Program-made: the position numbers and the translations under genes
Assembly: GCA_943357895.1 (NCBI GenBank)
Contig: CALRGO010000003.1
Location: 15,389-79,388, forward strand
Length of the DNA: 64,000 nucleotides
Source: Parcubacteria group bacterium
GTDB lineage: Bacteria > Patescibacteriota > Minisyncoccia > UBA6257 > UBA11618
Direction: 5' to 3'
Shown: positions 23,242 through 38,173 of the stretch, piece by piece
Layout of the letters: each line of letters opens with the position of its first letter
How positions within the stretch are numbered: the stretch's first letter is position 1
Notes under the pieces: generated by a model
The model's input: only the letters and a program-made list of their open reading frames with translations
The model's database searches: none
Told to the model about the DNA's origin: nothing

Positions 23242-24402
23242 CTAGTTTTTTAAAACAACCGCATCGCCTGCATCCATAAAGATAGCTTCGCGGTATTTGT
23301 TACGCGGGTTCCATATGAGCCACTGGCTCTTTAGCCCTGCGTCTGCAATAGCCCGCATCTGCTCGCGCACCATAAAGGGGGTATATACTGCACCCATATC
23401 AAAGTCCTGCACCCACGGGCGGATATTCGTAAACGGCACGCCCGCATCTGCAAAAATCTCCTTACCCTTCGCGAGCGTCTGTGCCATTACTTCGTACGGG
23501 TGCTCTGCGGGGTTCTTAAAATTAAAATTACCAGTGCTGTAATGTGACGGGTAGATCATGGGGCACACGTCATCAAGCACGGCTGCTAAAGCAGGCGCAG
23601 ACTGACCAATACCCATATCGTACTTGCGCATGAACGTGTAACCGAAAATATCTGCTGTAAGGCGCACGTCGGGATATTCACCCTTTAGGGTCTGCTTGAG
23701 GTATTTTGCTACGGAAACTATCACATCCGGCTTCGTACCGACAGCCTCGCTCCAAAAAGGATATACGGCGTTCGCTACCCCCTCGGATGGAAAACGGAAA
23801 TAATCGAGGTTAATTTCCGCAAAGCCCGCCTTAATAGCGTCGCGCGAAATCCCCGCCACGTATTCCCATGCCTTCTTATTGCTCGCGTCAAGCCAATACC
23901 GGCCGCCGTTATCGCGCCAAAGAGCGCCACTTGCAAGCTGTATCGCCCATGACGGGTTCGCTTTCGCCACCGCATTGTTTTGGAAGGCGACGACGCGCGC
24001 TATGGGGAAAATCTTCAAAAAACGCAGTTGGCGGACAAGCATACGCATCTCATCGTCCATCACCACACGGCCAGTCGCGTCCTGTATGTCTATTACGACT
24101 GCGTTCGGGGCGTAATCACCTTCTGAGGCCTTAATAAGCCGCACAATATCTTCCATGCGCGGGCTGTACGCAGTTGAAGCGGTAATATAGAGCGCACGAA
24201 CCTCTTCGGGATACGTTACGGGCGGCATCGGACTCGCAAGGGACACGGGGTGCGGCCCGCGGGCTATGTGGCGCGGCAGGCGGTACATGCCGTTCCACAC
24301 AACACACAAATAAATACAAAAAAGACCAAAGGCAAGAATAAGCGTAAGGGCGCACGCAAACGCACAATGCTTTTTTATGTGATGCTTAATTTTAATTGCC
24401 AT
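23242..24402 (-). CDS. Putative glycoside-hydrolase-like protein (GHL10/DUF4015-type TIM-barrel), membrane-anchored
   Basis: Start placed at the internal Met before the TM segment. An alternative start at 24438 would overlap cdaA by 47 nt. Confidence 0.6.
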   Translation of the reverse strand: MAIKIKHHIKKHCAFACALTLILAFGLFCIYLCVVWNGMYRLPRHIARGPHPVSLASPMPPVTYPEEVRALYITASTAYSPRMEDIVRLIKASEGDYAPNAVVIDIQDATGRVVMDDEMRMLVRQLRFLKIFPIARVVAFQNNAVAKANPSWAIQLASGALWRDNGGRYWLDASNKKAWEYVAGISRDAIKAGFAEINLDYFRFPSEGVANAVYPFWSEAVGTKPDVIVSVAKYLKQTLKGEYPDVRLTADIFGYTFMRKYDMGIGQSAPALAAVLDDVCPMIYPSHYSTGNFNFKNPAEHPYEVMAQTLAKGKEIFADAGVPFTNIRPWVQDFDMGAVYTPFMVREQMRAIADAGLKSQWLIWNPRNKYREAIFMDAGDAVVLKN

Positions 24403-25261
24403 GCGGGAAAACCAGAATAAACCACGCGACAACCGCAAGAAGCACCGCTAAGACCTTTTCGGGAATATTTTTAACCGCTCCAGAAAGCGGAAAAAATATC
24501 TTTTTTGCATGCTTTTCGCGCAAAAAACCGCTGATTGTAGTACGCAGATCCGCCCCTGACTTTACGGCCTTAAGCGTGCCATCCCGTGCGACGGAAATTG
24601 TCCCCTTTTCCTCCGAAACGATTACCGCGAGGGCGTCGGATACCTCGGCAATACCCAAGCCCGCGCTATGGCGCGTGCCATATATCTCGATCTGCCCGAA
24701 GTCCTGCGATAACGGCAAATGCACGCCGAACTTCGTAATCGTCTTACCCTCGATAATAAGCGCGCCGTCATGCCCTGGACTCGACGCGTCAAAAATGCTT
24801 TCGAGAAGCGGTTCGGAGATCTTCCCATACAGGTCAAAACCGCCCGAAAGGTGTCGCCCGAGCGATTCGCGGCCAGCGAATACCACAAGCATGCCAGTTT
24901 TTTCCTTAGCAAACCGTTCGGCGACGCGCACGACGCGGTCAATGTCTTCCGTCACCGGTTTTTTGCCTATATTTTTAGCCGTCGGGGAAAGGATAATAGC
25001 GATAATCTCAAAATAGCGACGCAGTTCAGACTGAAAGAGTATTACGATACCGATAAGGAAGACGCTAAAAAAAAGATTGAGCGCCTGCGCCGTAAGAGGA
25101 AAATCAAATATTTTTGCCGCGCCGTATACGAAAGAAACGATAATTATTCCGTAGACGATGAAAAGCGCGCGCGTCTGCTTTAAAAGCATAATAAGCCCAT
25201 ACACGAAAAAGGAAAAAATAAAGATATCGAATAACGCAGTGATGCTCATTGCATACATCAT
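24392..25261 (-). CDS. cdaA: Diadenylate cyclase CdaA (DisA_N domain)
   Basis: Three N-terminal TM helices plus the DAC motifs DGALII and GTRHSAGLG. Confidence 0.85.
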   Translation of the reverse strand: MMYAMSITALFDIFIFSFFVYGLIMLLKQTRALFIVYGIIIVSFVYGAAKIFDFPLTAQALNLFFSVFLIGIVILFQSELRRYFEIIAIILSPTAKNIGKKPVTEDIDRVVRVAERFAKEKTGMLVVFAGRESLGRHLSGGFDLYGKISEPLLESIFDASSPGHDGALIIEGKTITKFGVHLPLSQDFGQIEIYGTRHSAGLGIAEVSDALAVIVSEEKGTISVARDGTLKAVKSGADLRTTISGFLREKHAKKIFFPLSGAVKNIPEKVLAVLLAVVAWFILVFPHGN

Positions 25262-29366: not shown

Positions 29367-30203
29367 TTAAATGATTCGGAATGTATATCCATCCTTTTTT
29401 ATAAGGCCATCACGCATGAGGCCGCCCAAAGCAGTTTTGATTTTATCTATAGGCTCAGACGCACGTTTTGCAAGTGCCGTTTCCGTAAACGAGCTGTTCG
29501 TGAGCAGCCTTACGATCTTCCCGCGCGTTTCGCGTACGGATCCTTCGAACTTTGATTGCTTTACATAGTGCGCTGAGGCGCGACTCGGGTTCTTATTAAC
29601 CTTCTTAAGCATCGTGCCGTAATCCATAAGCGCGTAGTACCACTCGCGCGCTTGCCCGCCGGAGCCTTGGCGAAGGCTGGGGAGTGGTAATGCCTTTTTG
29701 ACTAATGGGAGTATATCGCCATCCTTCACGCCTGACCTGCCGGCAAAAAAGTGATGTAAAAATACGGCACGGACGTTCGTTTCTATAAAAAATTCGGGGC
29801 TGTTCCAGGCAAAGACCGCGATAGACCGTGCAGTCGCAGGGCCGATACCGGCTAATTTTTCGAGCTCTTCCGGACTTTGCGGCAAGCGGCCGCGGTAGTC
29901 ACGCATTACTACTTCAGCCGCCTTCTTTAAATACAACGCGCGGCGGTTATAACCCATGCCCTGCCACGCACTAAGCAGTTCGTTAAGAGGTGCTTCCGCG
30001 AGCGCTTTGAAATTTGGAAATAGCTTTATAAATTGCGGGAATTTTTCCATAACGCGCGCAACCTGTGTTTGCTGGAGCATAACCTCCGAAACGAACACAT
30101 AGTATGGCGTTATTTTCTCCCGCCACGGCATAGCCCGCTTGTTTACGGCATAATAACCCCACACGGTTTTTTGAAACTCTTTTATTTCCACGCCTAGAAG
30201 CAT
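29367..30203 (-). CDS. MutY-like HhH-GPD adenine DNA glycosylase lacking the 4Fe-4S cysteine motif
   Basis: VSEVMLQQTQVARV... with HhH motif LAGIGPATARSIA. No Cys residues where the Cys4 cluster motif normally sits. Confidence 0.7.
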   Translation of the reverse strand: MLLGVEIKEFQKTVWGYYAVNKRAMPWREKITPYYVFVSEVMLQQTQVARVMEKFPQFIKLFPNFKALAEAPLNELLSAWQGMGYNRRALYLKKAAEVVMRDYRGRLPQSPEELEKLAGIGPATARSIAVFAWNSPEFFIETNVRAVFLHHFFAGRSGVKDGDILPLVKKALPLPSLRQGSGGQAREWYYALMDYGTMLKKVNKNPSRASAHYVKQSKFEGSVRETRGKIVRLLTNSSFTETALAKRASEPIDKIKTALGGLMRDGLIKKDGYTFRII

Positions 30204-31702: not shown

Positions 31703-32332
31703 TTATTTCGAAAGTGCTACGGTCAAGGGGCAATCCGCATGGGCATGCGGCCGCGCCACGCAGTACGCGCGGCCGTAATCTATTAGCCGGTACGTGAATG
31801 AGAACCATTCTTTCTTGGGGATAGCAGCCATTAAGTCACGCTCAATTTTTATCGGATCTTTATATTTCGTAAGCCCGAGCTTTTGCGCCAAACGCATTAC
31901 GTGCGTATCGACTGCAATACCCTCCACTACGCCATAAGCGTTACCAAGGACGACGTTCGCCGTTTTCCGCGCCACCCCCGGAAGCGTAAGAATCTCTTTC
32001 ATGGTGCGCGGAATCTCGCCATGAAACTTTTCCTTGATAATCTTTGCCGCCGCCAAAATATTCTTCGTCTTATTCCTAAAAAATCCTGTTGAATGAATAT
32101 CCTTTTCGAACTCGGCGGGACTCGCCGCGCAATAATCTTCGAGCTTCGGATATTTTTTAAAAAGCACAGGGGTCACGATATTTACCCGCTTGTCGGTGCA
32201 TTGGGCGGATAGCTGTACGGCAACCATCAACTCCCAATTATTCGAATACGTCAAAGCAATTTCTGGCTTAGGAAACAGCCTTTTTAACTCCCGCAAAATA
32301 ATTTTTACACGCAAATCAAAACCGCTTTCCAT
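31703..32332 (-). CDS. nth: Endonuclease III (Nth), HhH-GPD; C-terminal Cys4 Fe-S motif incomplete (2 Cys)
   Basis: LPGVARKTANVVL HhH-GPD motif. 209 aa ending AYCVARPHAHADCP. Confidence 0.8.
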   Translation of the reverse strand: MESGFDLRVKIILRELKRLFPKPEIALTYSNNWELMVAVQLSAQCTDKRVNIVTPVLFKKYPKLEDYCAASPAEFEKDIHSTGFFRNKTKNILAAAKIIKEKFHGEIPRTMKEILTLPGVARKTANVVLGNAYGVVEGIAVDTHVMRLAQKLGLTKYKDPIKIERDLMAAIPKKEWFSFTYRLIDYGRAYCVARPHAHADCPLTVALSK

Positions 32333-33001: not shown

Positions 33002-33457
33002 TTACGGTATCAGGGGAACTGACTCCATTGGAACAGGCGGATACAAGTCCTCATCCACCGCGCGCCTAAAGCAGAAAGAGCCCGCGGGATGATCCCAATT
33101 ATCCTGCTTATATACGGGGTCGCCCGCGCCACGATTTTCCATGCTGAAATCCGCACACAGGGAAAATACTGGCCCGTCGGAAGGAGCCTCTATCGCGTAA
33201 CCGTATTCCACACCCGTCGCGGGATCCGTCGGCACCCTAAAACCCCGCACGTCGTCACGTAACGCTTCGAGCCCAGATGGCAACTCGTATTTCTTTTGCC
33301 AATAATTGATTACCTCCCACTGAATTGTCTGCAAATCACTAACGCGCCGCTCGTCGAACCGGCGCACGCGCTCGGTGGTGGGCGAACCAACAACGAAAAA
33401 GCCAGCGACGACCGAAACCACCACTACCCCTATTACGATACTCGGAAGAATTTTCAT
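33002..33457 (-). CDS. Membrane-anchored hypothetical protein
   Basis: N-terminal TM helix. No motif recognised. Confidence 0.5.
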   Translation of the reverse strand: MKILPSIVIGVVVVSVVAGFFVVGSPTTERVRRFDERRVSDLQTIQWEVINYWQKKYELPSGLEALRDDVRGFRVPTDPATGVEYGYAIEAPSDGPVFSLCADFSMENRGAGDPVYKQDNWDHPAGSFCFRRAVDEDLYPPVPMESVPLIP

Positions 33458-33470
33458 ATGCGTAGTAACG

Positions 33471-33974
33471 TTACGCCACACCCCCGATACGGGGAGCTCC
33501 GCCCGCGCGTGGCGAGTAATGCCCGAAAACTGCCCCCGACACGAGGAATACCGTGACGGCTTTAAGCGCGAAGCGCGTGGTAAGGTCGCCGTTCAAAAGC
33601 GAATACACGAGCGACACCACGTCGCCGGCAATAATTACGGCCGCGAGGAAGAGCGTAAAGTATATAAGCCACTTGCGCGTTTTTATTTCGCGCATGGCGG
33701 GATTAGCCACGTATCCCCGCTCCAAAAGCAATGAACTGTAAATATAAGCGGGGAAAACCACCACAAGCGACGCAATCGCAAAGCGAATAGAACCGTATGC
33801 CGCCTGCGCTTCGTACGTATTGAGCGCGTCCGGCAAATAAATATTTATATAATCGAATATCAGCGAAACAAAAGCGCCGGCGGAAATATAGAGAGCGACT
33901 ATCGAAAATAGGTGCAAAAATACGTCTTTGGGCGAAGCTTGGTTTGTTTGTTCCATATGCATAAACCGTATCAC
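33471..33974 (-). CDS. Integral membrane hypothetical protein (4 TM)
   Basis: Hydrophobic helices. No motif recognised. Confidence 0.5.
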   Translation of the reverse strand: MIRFMHMEQTNQASPKDVFLHLFSIVALYISAGAFVSLIFDYINIYLPDALNTYEAQAAYGSIRFAIASLVVVFPAYIYSSLLLERGYVANPAMREIKTRKWLIYFTLFLAAVIIAGDVVSLVYSLLNGDLTTRFALKAVTVFLVSGAVFGHYSPRAGGAPRIGGVA

Positions 33975-34061: not shown

Positions 34062-34748
34062 ATGAGCAGTGGACGCCTTATCACCATCGAAGGCATCGAC
34101 GGTGCCGGAAAAGGAACTCAAGTAGCATTACTTGTCACCCGCCTCGAATTAGAAGGGCATGCCATCGCCCTATTCGATTTTCCCCAATACAAAAAACCCC
34201 CGGCATGGTATGTTGAGCAATATCTAAATGGGAAATACGGTTCACTCGAAACCATTGGACCACATCTCGGATCGTTCTTCTTTATGCTCGATCGCCATGC
34301 GGCGGCAGTGAATATTCGCGATGCTCTCCATTGCGGGAAAATGGTGGTATGTAATCGATATGTGGGCTCTAATTTAGCGCATCAAGGCGGAAAAATCGCC
34401 GACAGCGGCAAACGCCACGCGTTCTTTAAATGGAATGACATAGTGGAATACCAAACGCATGGTATTCCCGTGCCCGACATCAATCCCGTGCTCTTTATCC
34501 CACCCGAAGCGAGCCGTACACTCGTCCTTCAAAAAGCCCGGCGAGCGCACCTCGAAGGGAAGGATCTTGACTTGCACGAAGCCGACATCAACCATCTGCG
34601 ACAGACATACACAGTCTATCGCGAACTCGTGGATATGTTTCCCGATAAATACGTTCCGGTGGAATGTTTCGAAGATGGACGGCATTTATCACCCCAAGAA
34701 ATCCACGAAAAGATTTGGGCAATCGTCGCCCCTGTCGTCGGGTATTGA
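34062..34748 (+). CDS. tmk: Thymidylate kinase
   Basis: IEGIDGAGKGTQ P-loop, a Tmk-like LID region, and GGAG SD. Confidence 0.85.
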   Translation: MSSGRLITIEGIDGAGKGTQVALLVTRLELEGHAIALFDFPQYKKPPAWYVEQYLNGKYGSLETIGPHLGSFFFMLDRHAAAVNIRDALHCGKMVVCNRYVGSNLAHQGGKIADSGKRHAFFKWNDIVEYQTHGIPVPDINPVLFIPPEASRTLVLQKARRAHLEGKDLDLHEADINHLRQTYTVYRELVDMFPDKYVPVECFEDGRHLSPQEIHEKIWAIVAPVVGY

Positions 34749-34899
34749 CGCCCTATCCGCAAAAAAAACCCTGAACGCTACACGAGCGCGTTCGGGGCTT
34801 TCTCTTGCCAAAAAATACCTTTCGCCGTATGCTGACCTCGGTTTTGTTGACAACTTTACGGCACTTTTGCCATCCGTCCCAACCCGAGGAGATAGACCA

Positions 34900-36618
34900 A
34901 TGTTTCAGCTTCCCGAAGATCGCAAGCAGGATCTGCTTGCCCACGCCGACGAATATATCGGCGCGAAAGTCAACTACAGCTTCACTCCTAAAGAAATGTA
35001 CGTATTGGAGCAATTTTTTACTAATTGCGACCAAAAGATTTTCTTCGTCCACGGACTGCCAGCAAATGTACTCGCCACGTTTGCCGCGATGTATTCGCGC
35101 ATGGCGAACCCCCGCGGCATCCGCGGGGTATTTGTTGACACCTACCTCATCTCGCTCATCGCTGGCACGTTACCGGAAGTCGAAACGGAGTATGGCGGCA
35201 AGATCGCTGATTTTCTTAAGGCGAGCGATATCACGTCGCTCGACGGCTTTTACGCCCACAGCGAAGCTACGCGCGCTTGTTACGAAAATTTTACGAGAAG
35301 CATCGTGATGGATCCCGACTACATCCAATCCATCACGAACACGAAGCGGACGAAAGGATTCTTAAGCACGTGGCTTGACGCCTACGGGCACAATTCCATC
35401 GCTCGCGTGGCATCCGTCACGATCTGCTTCGAAGGCATCTCTATCCTCGCGGCAAAGTCGCTTGAATGGTCACGCCCCGGAGCCGGATTCATAGAACGGT
35501 CCACGCGGTATGTCAACATGACAGATCCGCAATGGTACCCAATTGAAAACGAAATCAGAATTTTGGGAGATAGTCTGTTTTTTGCAGAAAGAACGATTAA
35601 ACGGGCCTTTGAGTTATACGCGGAGCTTCTTGGTGCTGATGTGGACGGTGCGTTTCCGCGCTATTTGTTCGACAAGTACGGCAATGATTACTCTAGCAAC
35701 GAAGCCGCGCTCAAGCTCGGCGTCATGGGAGAATCATTCGACGTGCTCGGTAACTTTCTACCAGCCGCCACGCTCACTTCGGTGTGCGCGACGGTCAGCG
35801 GCGAAGCCCTGCCAAGCGTCTTGCGGCACTTACTGCTCGACGGCACGCCCGAAAACAACGCTATCGTGCAAATGATCCTGAAAGAAGCTGCAAAAATCGG
35901 CGCGAACCAATTCTGTCGGCATTACGAGCCGACAATATCGGAACATGCCGGCTGGAGCTACCTTTCGACGGCGGCGTTCAAAAACTGCCGTCTGCCAATT
36001 TATTTAGAAGGAGATTACCCGACGCGGAACTTACTCGATATGTTCTGTATGAAAGAAGGATTCGCAAACGTTGCGAGCATGGAGGAAGTGCATACGCTCC
36101 TCTACGGTGCGGGGCGTGCGGACCACGACAAGCTACCAAACGAATTCGAGGCAGTCGGCGTCCGCTTGAAAGGCATGATGTCGTTCCGTGGATGGCGCGA
36201 TTTACACCGGCAAGGGTTTTCGACCCACCGGCGCACGCTACTCACGCCTGAACTCGGCTTTTATGTTTACGACAAGCCGCACCCCGTAGAATTAGATATC
36301 GGCTTCGCCGTTATCGAAGAATTCGCGCGAGAAGAATGGCAACGCCTGCTGAATACGCCCGTATTCATGCGGCAGTACATGCTACCGATCGGCTTCAACG
36401 TAGGTTTCACCTTTGGGTGCAACGCGCGCCAAGCCGAATTCTGTAATTGGCAAAGGACGGACTACAGCGTAAACCACGAAGTGCGTCAAGTGTTCCTCGC
36501 TATGGAAAATGCTCTTCGCGGGCGCTACAAATGGTGGGCGCAATTCTCACGGGCGGATATGACGCCAAAATACGTCTTCGCCCGCGGCAAACCGAAACGT
36601 GAGCTGATTGCCGAATAA
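34900..36618 (+). CDS. Large (572 aa) protein with two divergent Thy1/ThyX-like segments; putative flavin-dependent thymidylate synthase-like enzyme
   Basis: GAGGAG SD 9 nt before ATG 34900. The track ORF starting at 34459 overlaps tmk and is rejected. Segment 1 reads CFEGISILAAKSLEWSRPGAGFIERSTRYV...DPQWYPIENEIR, resembling the ThyX motifs FEIEGVS...LVRHRHFSFSQQSQRYV...HAQWEIR. Segment 2 has LHRQGFS...NARQAEF...HEVRQ. It sits between tmk and dcd. Confidence 0.45.
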   Translation: MFQLPEDRKQDLLAHADEYIGAKVNYSFTPKEMYVLEQFFTNCDQKIFFVHGLPANVLATFAAMYSRMANPRGIRGVFVDTYLISLIAGTLPEVETEYGGKIADFLKASDITSLDGFYAHSEATRACYENFTRSIVMDPDYIQSITNTKRTKGFLSTWLDAYGHNSIARVASVTICFEGISILAAKSLEWSRPGAGFIERSTRYVNMTDPQWYPIENEIRILGDSLFFAERTIKRAFELYAELLGADVDGAFPRYLFDKYGNDYSSNEAALKLGVMGESFDVLGNFLPAATLTSVCATVSGEALPSVLRHLLLDGTPENNAIVQMILKEAAKIGANQFCRHYEPTISEHAGWSYLSTAAFKNCRLPIYLEGDYPTRNLLDMFCMKEGFANVASMEEVHTLLYGAGRADHDKLPNEFEAVGVRLKGMMSFRGWRDLHRQGFSTHRRTLLTPELGFYVYDKPHPVELDIGFAVIEEFAREEWQRLLNTPVFMRQYMLPIGFNVGFTFGCNARQAEFCNWQRTDYSVNHEVRQVFLAMENALRGRYKWWAQFSRADMTPKYVFARGKPKRELIAE

Positions 36619-36649
36619 GCAAGTATTGCCGAAGCAGAAAACCAACCGA

Positions 36650-36687
36650 CCCCGACCGCGCGCTTGACGTGCGGTCGGGGTTTTCTT
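36650..36687 (+). terminator. Intrinsic terminator after the ThyX-like gene
   Basis: A 10-bp stem ccccgaccgc/gcggtcgggg followed by TTTTCTT. A TTGACG...TATGCT promoter-like pair is embedded in it. Confidence 0.7.
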
Positions 36688-36698
36688 ATGCTCGCACT

Positions 36699-37370
36699 AT
36701 GTTACTATCAGCACCCGCAATTGTACGGCATATCAAAAAAGGAACTATAACGATCGACGCGTATAATGAGAAAAACCTCGGTAACGCGAGCTACGACGTA
36801 ACGCTCGGCGCGCACTACTACCGCGAGCAAGCACCCACAGGAGGCAACGCGGTTTTTAATTTATATAACGAAGAAGACACCTACCGCGTATGGGGTAAAA
36901 AACATGCCGTGGCCGAAAAGTTCGGCAAGGATGGCGTAGCGGGCATTAAGAAAGACGATATGGTGATATGGCTTGCGCCGATGGAGACCGTCTTAGCGCA
37001 CACCGAAGAATTTATTGGCGGCACGGAAGTGGTAGACACGATGCTTAAAGCGCGATCATCGACCGCGCGCAACTTCATAAGCGTATGCAAGTGCGCTGGC
37101 TGGGGAGATGTTGGCTATGTTAACCGCTGGACGATGCAGATAACAAACCACAGCAGGTACTACCACATACCGCTCGTTGTGGGCCGCCGCATCGCGCAAA
37201 TTGTATTTTTCGAAGTAGAGCCGCTTCACGAAGTAGGCAATGCGGCATCATATGGCAAAAAAGATGACAGCAAGTACCAATCATCTGCGAACCTGAAGAA
37301 AATCAAAAAGGAATGGAAGCCGAGGGATATGCTGCCTAAGATGTGGAAGGACCGCGATGTTACGAAATAA
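36699..37370 (+). CDS. dcd: dCTP deaminase (dUTPase superfamily)
   Basis: MLLSAPAIVRHIKKGTITIDAYNEKNLGNASYDVTLG... is Dcd-like. Start at ATG 36699; the track's GTG start at 36669 lies inside the terminator hairpin. Confidence 0.75.
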   Translation: MLLSAPAIVRHIKKGTITIDAYNEKNLGNASYDVTLGAHYYREQAPTGGNAVFNLYNEEDTYRVWGKKHAVAEKFGKDGVAGIKKDDMVIWLAPMETVLAHTEEFIGGTEVVDTMLKARSSTARNFISVCKCAGWGDVGYVNRWTMQITNHSRYYHIPLVVGRRIAQIVFFEVEPLHEVGNAASYGKKDDSKYQSSANLKKIKKEWKPRDMLPKMWKDRDVTK

Positions 37371-37824: not shown

Positions 37825-37911
37825 AGTATGATGATATCATACGCCATTTTATGGACAGTAATCCTCTGCCATGCTATGCTCTAGGCAACGAAGATTTAAC
37901 GAACAAATAGG

Positions 37912-37977
37912 CGAATGCCGTTTGTCTTTAGTCTCGGAAAGTCGTTTATAAAGCAAAAAAGACACTAATGGCATTCG
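37912..37977 (+). promoter_or_regulatory. Long imperfect inverted repeat (8+7 bp arms, 28-nt loop) enclosing the start codon of the zinc-ribbon ORF
   Basis: cgaatgccgtttgtcttt...aaagacactaatggcattcg. The ATG at 37968 lies inside the right arm. A TGGACA-N17-TATGCT promoter-like sequence sits at 37852-37880. Confidence 0.4.
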
Positions 37978-38168
37978 AACGCAACAATGGCGGCATGGGA
38001 GGCGGTAACTTCCAGCGTCAGATGTTCTCGGGAGATTGGAAGTGCTCGAAGTGCGCCGGCCCGATAAAGGAACTTCCTTTTCAGCCCGACCCAGCTCGGC
38101 TCGACCAGCTTCTCTGCAGGGACTGTCACCGTCAGAACGCCCCTCGCAGGGATTTCGGCGGTAGATAA
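37968..38168 (+). CDS. Candidate small zinc-ribbon protein (66 aa; CSKC...CRDC)
   Basis: C-x2-C-x24-C-x2-C pattern with a strong terminator immediately downstream. The antisense 107-aa ORF is low-complexity. Confidence 0.4.
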   Translation: MAFERNNGGMGGGNFQRQMFSGDWKCSKCAGPIKELPFQPDPARLDQLLCRDCHRQNAPRRDFGGR

Positions 38169-38173
38169 ACAAT

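Follow-up and report, generated by a model that had tools for sequence, protein, structure and literature searches.

The 64,000-nucleotide stretch analysed here (the window), from contig CALRGO010000003.1 of a Parcubacteria group bacterium assembly (GCA_943357895.1), harbours a small cluster of genes encoding a divergent thymidine monophosphate (dTMP) kinase (tmk), a protein of the ThyX family of flavin-dependent thymidylate synthases (FDTS) and a member of the dCTP deaminase family (dcd). The middle gene is the subject of this report, its 572-residue product being a candidate thymidylate synthase in which two diverged ThyX domains are fused in one chain. Three plus-strand open reading frames (ORFs) occupy the region, at 34062–34748, 34459–36618 and 36669–37370, amid genes that lie mostly on the minus strand, and all three were found where an earlier note on this DNA, made from the sequence by a model, had placed them. 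The mechanical ORF that opens at 34459 would encode 719 residues; it is over-extended at its 5' end, where it overlaps tmk. Homologous proteins share a methionine start equivalent to the ATG at 34900 and do not share the upstream extension, which supports the 572-residue product. This is the start that the earlier note had chosen, together with the Shine–Dalgarno-like GAGGAG that precedes it (Table 1).

The similarity of this protein to ThyX is far beyond chance. The Pfam Thy1 family (PF02511) matches with 62.2 bits (E 7.4e-17; gathering cut-off 24.8 bits) over residues 122–331 only, and the second half of the chain has no Thy1 match, so that a single domain is recognised by Pfam. A phmmer search of the 572-residue protein against PDB sequences also returned nothing. 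The second domain emerges from structure prediction and from profile comparison. An AlphaFold model of the full chain, built from a 36-sequence alignment, is confident throughout (predicted local distance difference test, pLDDT, 90.7; predicted template modelling score, pTM, 0.90), and when it was compared with the PDB by Foldseek it retrieved ThyX structures only, each spanning about one domain. The order of secondary structure elements in residues 172–330 of this model (strand, helix, strand, long helix, helix, strand, helix, helix) recurs at residues 420–542. Residues 341–572, modelled alone with trimmed homologs (pLDDT 91.3), match chain B of Thermotoga maritima ThyX (1o25_B) with an E-value of 1.2e-8 and TM-scores of 0.63 (query, TMq) and 0.67 (target, TMt) over 210 columns; the best 50 Foldseek matches listed for this half are all ThyX, and 156 matches have E ≤ 1e-3. 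Profile alignment with hhalign pairs residues 369–548 of half 2 with residues 16–203 of T. maritima ThyX (E 1.1e-4) and residues 126–317 of half 1 with residues 8–179 (E 0.002), whilst positions 463–548 of a HMMER profile of the family align to 1kq4 (E 0.0017). Both halves are thus predicted to adopt the ThyX fold. The earlier note had described a fused, pseudo-dimeric FDTS with a second ThyX-like segment, to be examined with Pfam Thy1 on both halves and with AlphaFold and Foldseek against ThyX structures. The description stands, as does the second segment; of the Pfam comparison the first half came through and the second did not, its assignment coming instead from the predicted structure and the profile methods.

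The protein belongs to a large and coherent family. More than 250 proteins of 550–615 residues match it over 94–100% of its length, from sources named Yanofsky-, Taylor-, Giovannoni-, Azam-, Niyogi- and Komeilibacteria or 'Patescibacteria group', and many of these are already labelled 'FAD-dependent thymidylate synthase' or 'ThyX' in NCBI and JGI records. Conservation extends over the whole length, with a mean column identity of 52% among 36 sequences that are 43–80% identical to the query. In species-representative genomes, a pattern scan yielded 42 loci, every one in a metagenome-assembled genome that is labelled as a Patescibacteria lineage or unclassified. An exhaustive profile search across 1.84 billion representatives yielded 2184 matches at E ≤ 1e-3, of which 980 reached E ≤ 1e-10 and 179 reached E ≤ 1e-30, the last being representative clusters at 50% identity that include other tandem ThyX proteins. 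Below some 60 close family members, hmmsearch retrieves a second tier at E-values of 1e-46 to 1e-32, whose full-length members are mostly 480–570 residues long and align over profile positions ~140–550; all ten of the second-tier proteins tested carry two Pfam Thy1 stretches. Named members of this tier come from Micrarchaeota and other DPANN archaea, Woesearchaeota, Tectomicrobia, Curtissbacteria and Dependentiae. An hhalign comparison of the Patescibacteria and DPANN alignments pairs positions 24–563 with 1–513 (probability 99.9, E 4.9e-37, 482 columns), the Patescibacteria proteins carrying an insertion of ~45 residues near residues 85–135 relative to the DPANN tandem ThyX.

Judged from these homologs, the tandem ThyX architecture already exists and is widespread. 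Duplicated ThyX was mentioned in 2009 in Chloroflexi and 'a few other species' and was called uncharacterised (PMC3224940); in the literature searched, nothing on tandem ThyX later than that mention and nothing relevant on ThyX in Patescibacteria or DPANN archaea was found, and the PDB yielded no solved structure of a tandem ThyX, either to Foldseek with the query model or to phmmer with a DPANN relative (P0348). The novelty lies in a strongly diverged Patescibacteria branch, described here, whose signature is split, whose second domain escapes Pfam and which carries a group of invariant substitutions. Most of the tandem ThyX proteins that have a named source belong to symbiotic or reduced-genome lineages (Micrarchaeota, Woesearchaeota, Dependentiae and Patescibacteria), Tectomicrobia being an exception, and their spread among reduced-genome lineages suggests ancient or shared ancestry, or gene transfer. 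Five relatives have an additional 110–270 N-terminal residues (P0313, 657 residues; P0316, 702; P0326, 741; P0349, 684; P0374, 692) and may be further fusions; the extensions of P0313 and P0316 were scanned and gave no Pfam match.

The signature residues of ThyX are distributed between the two halves. Residue equivalences, numbered after T. maritima ThyX in a sequence 100% identical to the PDB construct, were taken from hhalign and HMMER alignments, and their conservation from 131 sequences aligned together (36 from Patescibacteria, 71 second-tier and 24 DPANN). In half 1, S66, S166, R192, E199, S201, R203 and Y204 correspond to S30, T55, R80, E86, S88, R90 and Y91. Conservation of R192, S201 and R203 is 100% in each of the three groups, that of E199 is 94–100% and that of Y204 is 86–100% (Phe otherwise, the lowest value being that of the Patescibacteria set); S66 and S166 are fixed at 95–100% in every group. 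In half 2, the motif RGWRDLHRQGFSTHRRT supplies R433, R437, Q438, G439, H443 and R445 at the positions of R74, R78, H79, R80, S88 and R90, and R433, R437, N508 and R519 are fixed at 95–100% in every group. Half 1 reads W-S-R-P-G followed by E-R-S-T-R-Y and half 2 reads R-Q-G-F-S-T-H-R-R-T; every tandem form is without the first Arg and the His of the RHR triad in half 1, and without the substrate-loop Ser and Tyr in half 2. Of ten flavin- or dUMP-binding residues (R78, H79, R80, S88, R90, Y91, R147, N163, R165 and R174), eight are matched in one half or both, in a register that is uncertain by about one residue. Because the same residue split is seen in all tandem forms, complementary motifs are, on these alignments, a general property of tandem ThyX.

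The strings that the earlier note had quoted are all present, namely CFEGISILAAKSLEWSRPGAGFIERSTRYV (residues 176–205), DPQWYPIENEIR (209–220), LHRQGFS (435–441) and NARQAEFCNWQRTDYSVNHEVRQ (508–530), and its idea of complementary motifs is upheld by the 131 tandem sequences, which keep the canonical residues in one half or the other. Its proposal that DPQWYPIENEIR is the counterpart of the C-terminal 'HAQWEIR' helix did not hold, as this segment belongs to the loop that follows S-x-R-Y and is conserved at Y213 and P214 only; the true counterparts of that helix are residues ~316–330 in half 1 and SVNHEVRQ (523–530) in half 2. Two of our own assignments were also replaced by later alignments: D314 gave way to H310 as the half-1 counterpart of R174, and R437, equated with R80 by the first hhalign comparison, is instead the counterpart of R78.

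The Parcubacteria-type branch differs from the remaining tandem proteins by a series of changes that, position 438 excepted, are each fixed at 88–100%. In half 1, R147, N163, R165 and K/R174 are replaced by G284, S300, E302 and H310, E58 by R169, and the H53 position is occupied by H164 where most other tandem forms have Asp. In half 2, H79 becomes Q or M at 438 (Q 58%, M 41%), R80 becomes G439, and R430, H443 and R551 take the place of Gly, Gln and Phe, respectively. R72 is also gained and invariant in the branch. Across the 36 Patescibacteria sequences, six of these positions (Q/M438, G439, G284, S300, E302 and H310) are each 97–100% fixed. In half 2 the disappearance of H79 and R80 coincides with a new Arg, R430, seven residues upstream; this looks like a relocated positive charge rather than a plain loss, and the invariant substitutions of the branch as a whole suggest re-modelled sites.

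Table 1. Features of the tmk–thyX–dcd region (positions in the window; protein residues numbered from the ATG at 34900)
Feature	Position	Strand	Basis or remark
tmk, divergent dTMP kinase, 228 residues, P-loop GIDGAGKGT	34062–34748	+	Pfam Thymidylate_kin, E 4.8e-16, N-terminal half only
Shine–Dalgarno-like GAGGAG	34886–34891	+	8 nt 5' of ATG 34900, read from the sequence
Tandem two-domain ThyX-family protein, 572 residues plus stop	34900–36618	+	Translation, Pfam Thy1, >250 full-length homologs
ThyX domain 1 (residues ~35–340); helical insertion ~85–135 lineage-specific	35002–35919	+	Pfam Thy1 at 122–331, hhalign, DPANN alignment
Half-1 ThyX motif EWSRPGAGFIERSTRY (residues 189–204)	35464–35511	+	RHR triad reduced to R192; E-x-S-x-R-Y loop intact
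ThyX domain 2 (residues 341–572)	35920–36615	+	AlphaFold with Foldseek, hhalign, HMMER profile
Half-2 degenerate ThyX motif RGWRDLHRQGFSTHRRT (residues 430–446)	36187–36237	+	Alignment to the DPANN motif YRDLHRHRILTQERQ and to T. maritima ThyX
Half-2 segment NARQAEFCNWQR (residues 508–519)	36421–36456	+	N508 = N163, R510 = R165, R519 = R174; HMMER alignment to 1kq4
Intrinsic-terminator-like hairpin, 15 pairs (11 G-C), then TTTTCTT	36648–36682	+	Terminator scan and sequence reading
dcd, dCTP deaminase family, 223 residues from revised ATG 36699	36699–37370	+	Pfam DCD, E 2.8e-28

The identities of the flanking genes, tmk upstream and dcd downstream, had been proposed in the earlier note and are borne out by Pfam and by their nearest solved structures. 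The tmk product scores 106.6 bits against NCBIfam PRK07933, below the cut-off of 193, and reaches no NCBIfam equivalog cut-off; its nearest solved structure is Mycobacterium tuberculosis Tmk (1g3u, E 4.9e-17, residues 6–190). The dcd product likewise falls below the cut-off of TIGR02274 (72.3 against 92.8 bits), and its nearest solved structures are those of the dUMP-forming bifunctional dCTP deaminase/dUTPase of Methanocaldococcus jannaschii (3gf0 and 1ogh), at E ~1e-8 only and over residues 1–193. If its product is dUMP, it would feed ThyX directly. The strong terminator described 3' of the thyX stop codon is real, comprising a hairpin and a T-run; since this hairpin overlaps the GTG at 36669, that codon was rejected as the dcd start, and dcd probably begins at the ATG at 36699. 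A promoter-like sequence, TTGACG-17-TATGCT, was noted at 36664–36692, overlapping the hairpin. Promoter-like sites precede thyX and dcd and, together with the terminator between these two genes, they indicate that tmk, thyX and dcd are clustered but probably do not form one transcript. Immediately upstream of tmk, two minus-strand genes at 33471–33974 and 33002–33481, which overlap by 11 nt, encode a DUF5671 membrane protein and a small protein without a family.

Among the related loci, tmk adjoins the tandem thyX gene in 7 of ~42 and dcd in 2 of ~42, and the neighbours of the tandem thyX gene of one relative (P0074) are unrelated; a universally conserved tmk-thyX-dcd operon was rejected on these counts. 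The operon context invoked in the earlier note therefore survives in part: tmk and dcd do recur beside the gene in other Patescibacteria, but in a minority of loci, and the terminator splits the cluster. The thymidylate-synthesis role that it had drawn from this context fits the recurrence of tmk and dcd, the similarity of dcd to dUMP-forming enzymes and the finding of neither ThyA nor a canonical ThyX in the 64-kb window or in 44 related loci.

How two incomplete halves might constitute an enzyme is suggested by the architecture of canonical ThyX, whose active site is built from three subunits (PMC6514825, PMC3498832), the RHR triad and R174 being supplied by subunit A, R165 and the Ser by subunit B and S-x-R-Y by subunit C (PMC6514825). 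As ThyX sites are composite across subunits, asymmetric halves could still form a complete site. In the proposed mechanism two chains would pair, rebuilding the 222-like four-domain assembly of homotetrameric ThyX, and, with the halves having diverged asymmetrically, two of the four inter-domain sites would be expected to be catalytic. In these, half 2 would fulfil the role of subunit A and half 1 that of subunit C: half 2 would supply the flavin- and dUMP-binding residues R437 (R78), N508 (N163), R510 (R165) and R519 (R174), whilst the substrate loop E199, S201, R203 and Y204 (E86, S88, R90 and Y91), together with H164 (H53) and S166 (T55), would come from half 1. The other site pair, with role A taken by half 1 and role C by half 2, would lack R78, S88 and Y91 in all tandem forms and, in the query branch, R147, R165 and K/R174 as well. 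The enzyme would methylate dUMP, probably derived from the adjacent dUMP-forming-like Dcd, to dTMP, which the adjacent Tmk would phosphorylate.

The analysis establishes the fold of both halves, homology to other tandem ThyX proteins along the full length, the conservation pattern and the recurrence of tmk and dcd beside the gene. The dimerization, the number of active sites, the role of each half and the chemistry are inferred, and the arrangement we favour is a dimer in which two sites are catalytic and the other two degenerate or repurposed. That the 572-residue protein is a tandem ThyX/FDTS, acting as a homodimeric pseudo-tetramer with two composite catalytic sites that make dTMP, is a conclusion held with somewhat better than even confidence. 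Several observations weigh against it. The signature RHRxxSxxxxSxRY is contiguous in neither half; H79 and R147 have no counterpart in either, the R147 positions being G284 and Q492; the His and second Arg of the half-2 triad have been replaced at 438 and 439; R510, the counterpart of R165, is 80% conserved within the Patescibacteria branch; and around loops the equivalences themselves are uncertain by about one position. The NCBIfam thyX equivalog model (TIGR02170), whose cut-off is 87.9 bits, gives the protein 18.2. By hhalign the two halves do not resemble one another significantly (E ~0.5), which points to an old duplication, invisible to direct comparison of the halves and requiring a ThyX profile or structure as a bridge. 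Most relatives lack the tmk/dcd neighbourhood, and the absence of another thymidylate synthase covers 64 kb of this genome, so that a second one may be encoded elsewhere.

The fixed changes of the branch can also be read as a sign that the chemistry or the ligands have changed. In this alternative the protein is a ThyX-fold flavoenzyme acting on another pyrimidine nucleotide, or with another one-carbon donor or reductant, and the invariant substitutions reflect a re-modelled site rather than decay. The losses and reversals at R165 (E302), K/R174 (H310), R147 (G284), R80 (G439) and H79 (Q/M), the gains of R169, R430, H443 and R551 and the wide margin by which the equivalog model is missed are consistent with it, as is the ability of ThyX to take free formaldehyde in vitro, described in PMC8316439. 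However, the dUMP-contacting loop (E199, S201, R203 and Y204), R437, R519 and the H53-like H164 are all kept, the recurrent neighbours tmk and dcd belong to the dTMP pathway and no other thymidylate synthase is encoded nearby; we consider a change of chemistry unlikely. Distinctly unlikely, in our estimate, is that the substitutions mark re-engineered composite sites, one site pair having become a new ligand site (for a reductant, an effector or an alternative one-carbon donor) or the catalytic pair binding flavin differently. The supply of folate and NADPH is thought to be limited in such organisms, which such sites would fit, and the protein would then be a naturally half-of-sites ThyX whose second site differs in mechanism.

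A further alternative, that the protein is a degenerate, non-catalytic relic of ThyX, for example a nucleotide-binding or regulatory protein kept in reduced genomes that salvage thymidine, would account for the absence of an intact signature from both halves and for the loss of several canonical Arg residues, and Patescibacteria are known to lean heavily on salvage. Nevertheless, the protein is under very strong purifying selection over its full 572 residues, the remaining canonical catalytic positions included, the family is widespread (179 representative clusters at E ≤ 1e-30, other tandem ThyX among them, and 42 loci) and the adjacency of tmk and dcd points to a metabolic role, all of which make such a relic very improbable. 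Finally, although the 719-residue ORF is indeed too long at its 5' end and overlaps tmk, an artefact, whether an over-extended ORF or two neighbouring thyX genes merged by an assembly or frameshift error, is ruled out for practical purposes by the more than 250 homologs from independent assemblies that are collinear with the query over 94–100% of it, by their agreement on the start at 34900 and by a single-chain AlphaFold model that is confident across the junction (pTM 0.90). The catalytic tandem ThyX remains the preferred reading, and the 572-residue protein is probably the thymidylate synthase of the cell despite the Pfam and equivalog misses.

The rest of the window is ordinary chromosome, encoding ribosomal proteins, EF-Tu, EF-G, GroEL, RmuC, a DAC-domain protein, two endonuclease III-like proteins, TruB, BipA, Obg, pyruvate kinase and UvrABC; a Pfam scan of 40 larger ORFs of the 64-kb window found no folate genes. 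Strand bias is strong across positions 1–64000, with nearly all long ORFs on the minus strand and a cumulative GC skew that falls steadily; there are few plus-strand islands, the tmk-thyX-dcd cluster among them. The two endonuclease III-like genes (HhH-GPD plus HhH; 29367–30203 and 31703–32332, minus strand) lie less than 3 kb apart, with truB and a small ORF between them. The gene for the DAC protein (DisA_N, of the cyclic di-AMP synthase type; 24392–25261, minus strand) is directly upstream of, and slightly overlaps, a gene for a putative glycosyl hydrolase of the DUF4015 family (23242–24438, minus strand). In a gap between annotated-looking genes, a 66-residue ORF at 37968–38168 (plus strand) contains two CxxC pairs (CSKC...CRDC) with the look of a zinc ribbon; the 107-residue minus-strand ORF that overlaps it (37849–38172) looks spurious.

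The active site of ThyX, an antibiotic target, is flexible and shared among three subunits, and has been hard to dissect. A fused, asymmetric ThyX would fix which domain provides which residues and would allow mutagenesis of one site at a time without the mixing of subunits. For annotation, the case is one in which Pfam overlooks the second domain and the protein falls short of the thyX equivalog model.

The closest known systems are the other tandem ThyX proteins (of DPANN archaea, Tectomicrobia, Dependentiae and Curtissbacteria and, from the literature, Chloroflexi), which share with the query the layout of two ThyX domains in one chain of ~500–590 residues, collinear with it, and an N-terminal F(F/C)TN...YSR block. 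They also share its asymmetry: E-x-S-x-R-Y and a single Arg of RHR are retained by half 1, and R74, R78, N163 and R174, but not Ser88 or Tyr91, by half 2. They differ in that Pfam sees both of their domains, whereas in the query it sees the first only, and in that most of them retain the half-2 RHR, where the query branch has R-Q/M-G, and the half-1 R147, N163, R165 and K/R174, where it has G284, S300, E302 and H310. Invariant R72, R169, R430, H443 and R551 are gains of the query branch, which also has H164 where most others have Asp. The ThyX of Chlamydia trachomatis, reportedly of ~529 residues and said to have been described by Griffin et al. in 2005 as an active FDTS, could belong here too, no chlamydial protein occurring among the named tandem relatives retrieved; if tandem, it would be the sole biochemically characterised relative of this architecture.

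With the canonical homotetrameric enzymes (T. maritima TM0449, PDB 1o26; M. tuberculosis Rv2754c, PDB 2af6 and 3gwc) the query has in common the fold of each of its halves, and reaction and cofactors would be expected to be the same. Canonical H53, T55, R80, E86, S88, R90 and Y91 have their counterparts in half 1 and R74, R78, N163, R165 and R174 in half 2. In the canonical enzymes, each chain is one domain of ~220–250 residues, the four composite sites are identical and RHRxxSxxxxSxRY is intact in every subunit; in the query, in contrast, each chain carries two non-identical domains between which the motif is split. A precedent for such a division is the engineering of ThyX heterotetramers from complementing inactive mutants, as recounted in PMC3498832, which cites Leduc et al. 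2004 for it. Like the query, these rest on three-subunit sites in which different subunits supply different parts of the site. Whereas the heterotetramers are laboratory assemblies of separate chains, the asymmetry of the query is natural, fused and fixed by evolution.

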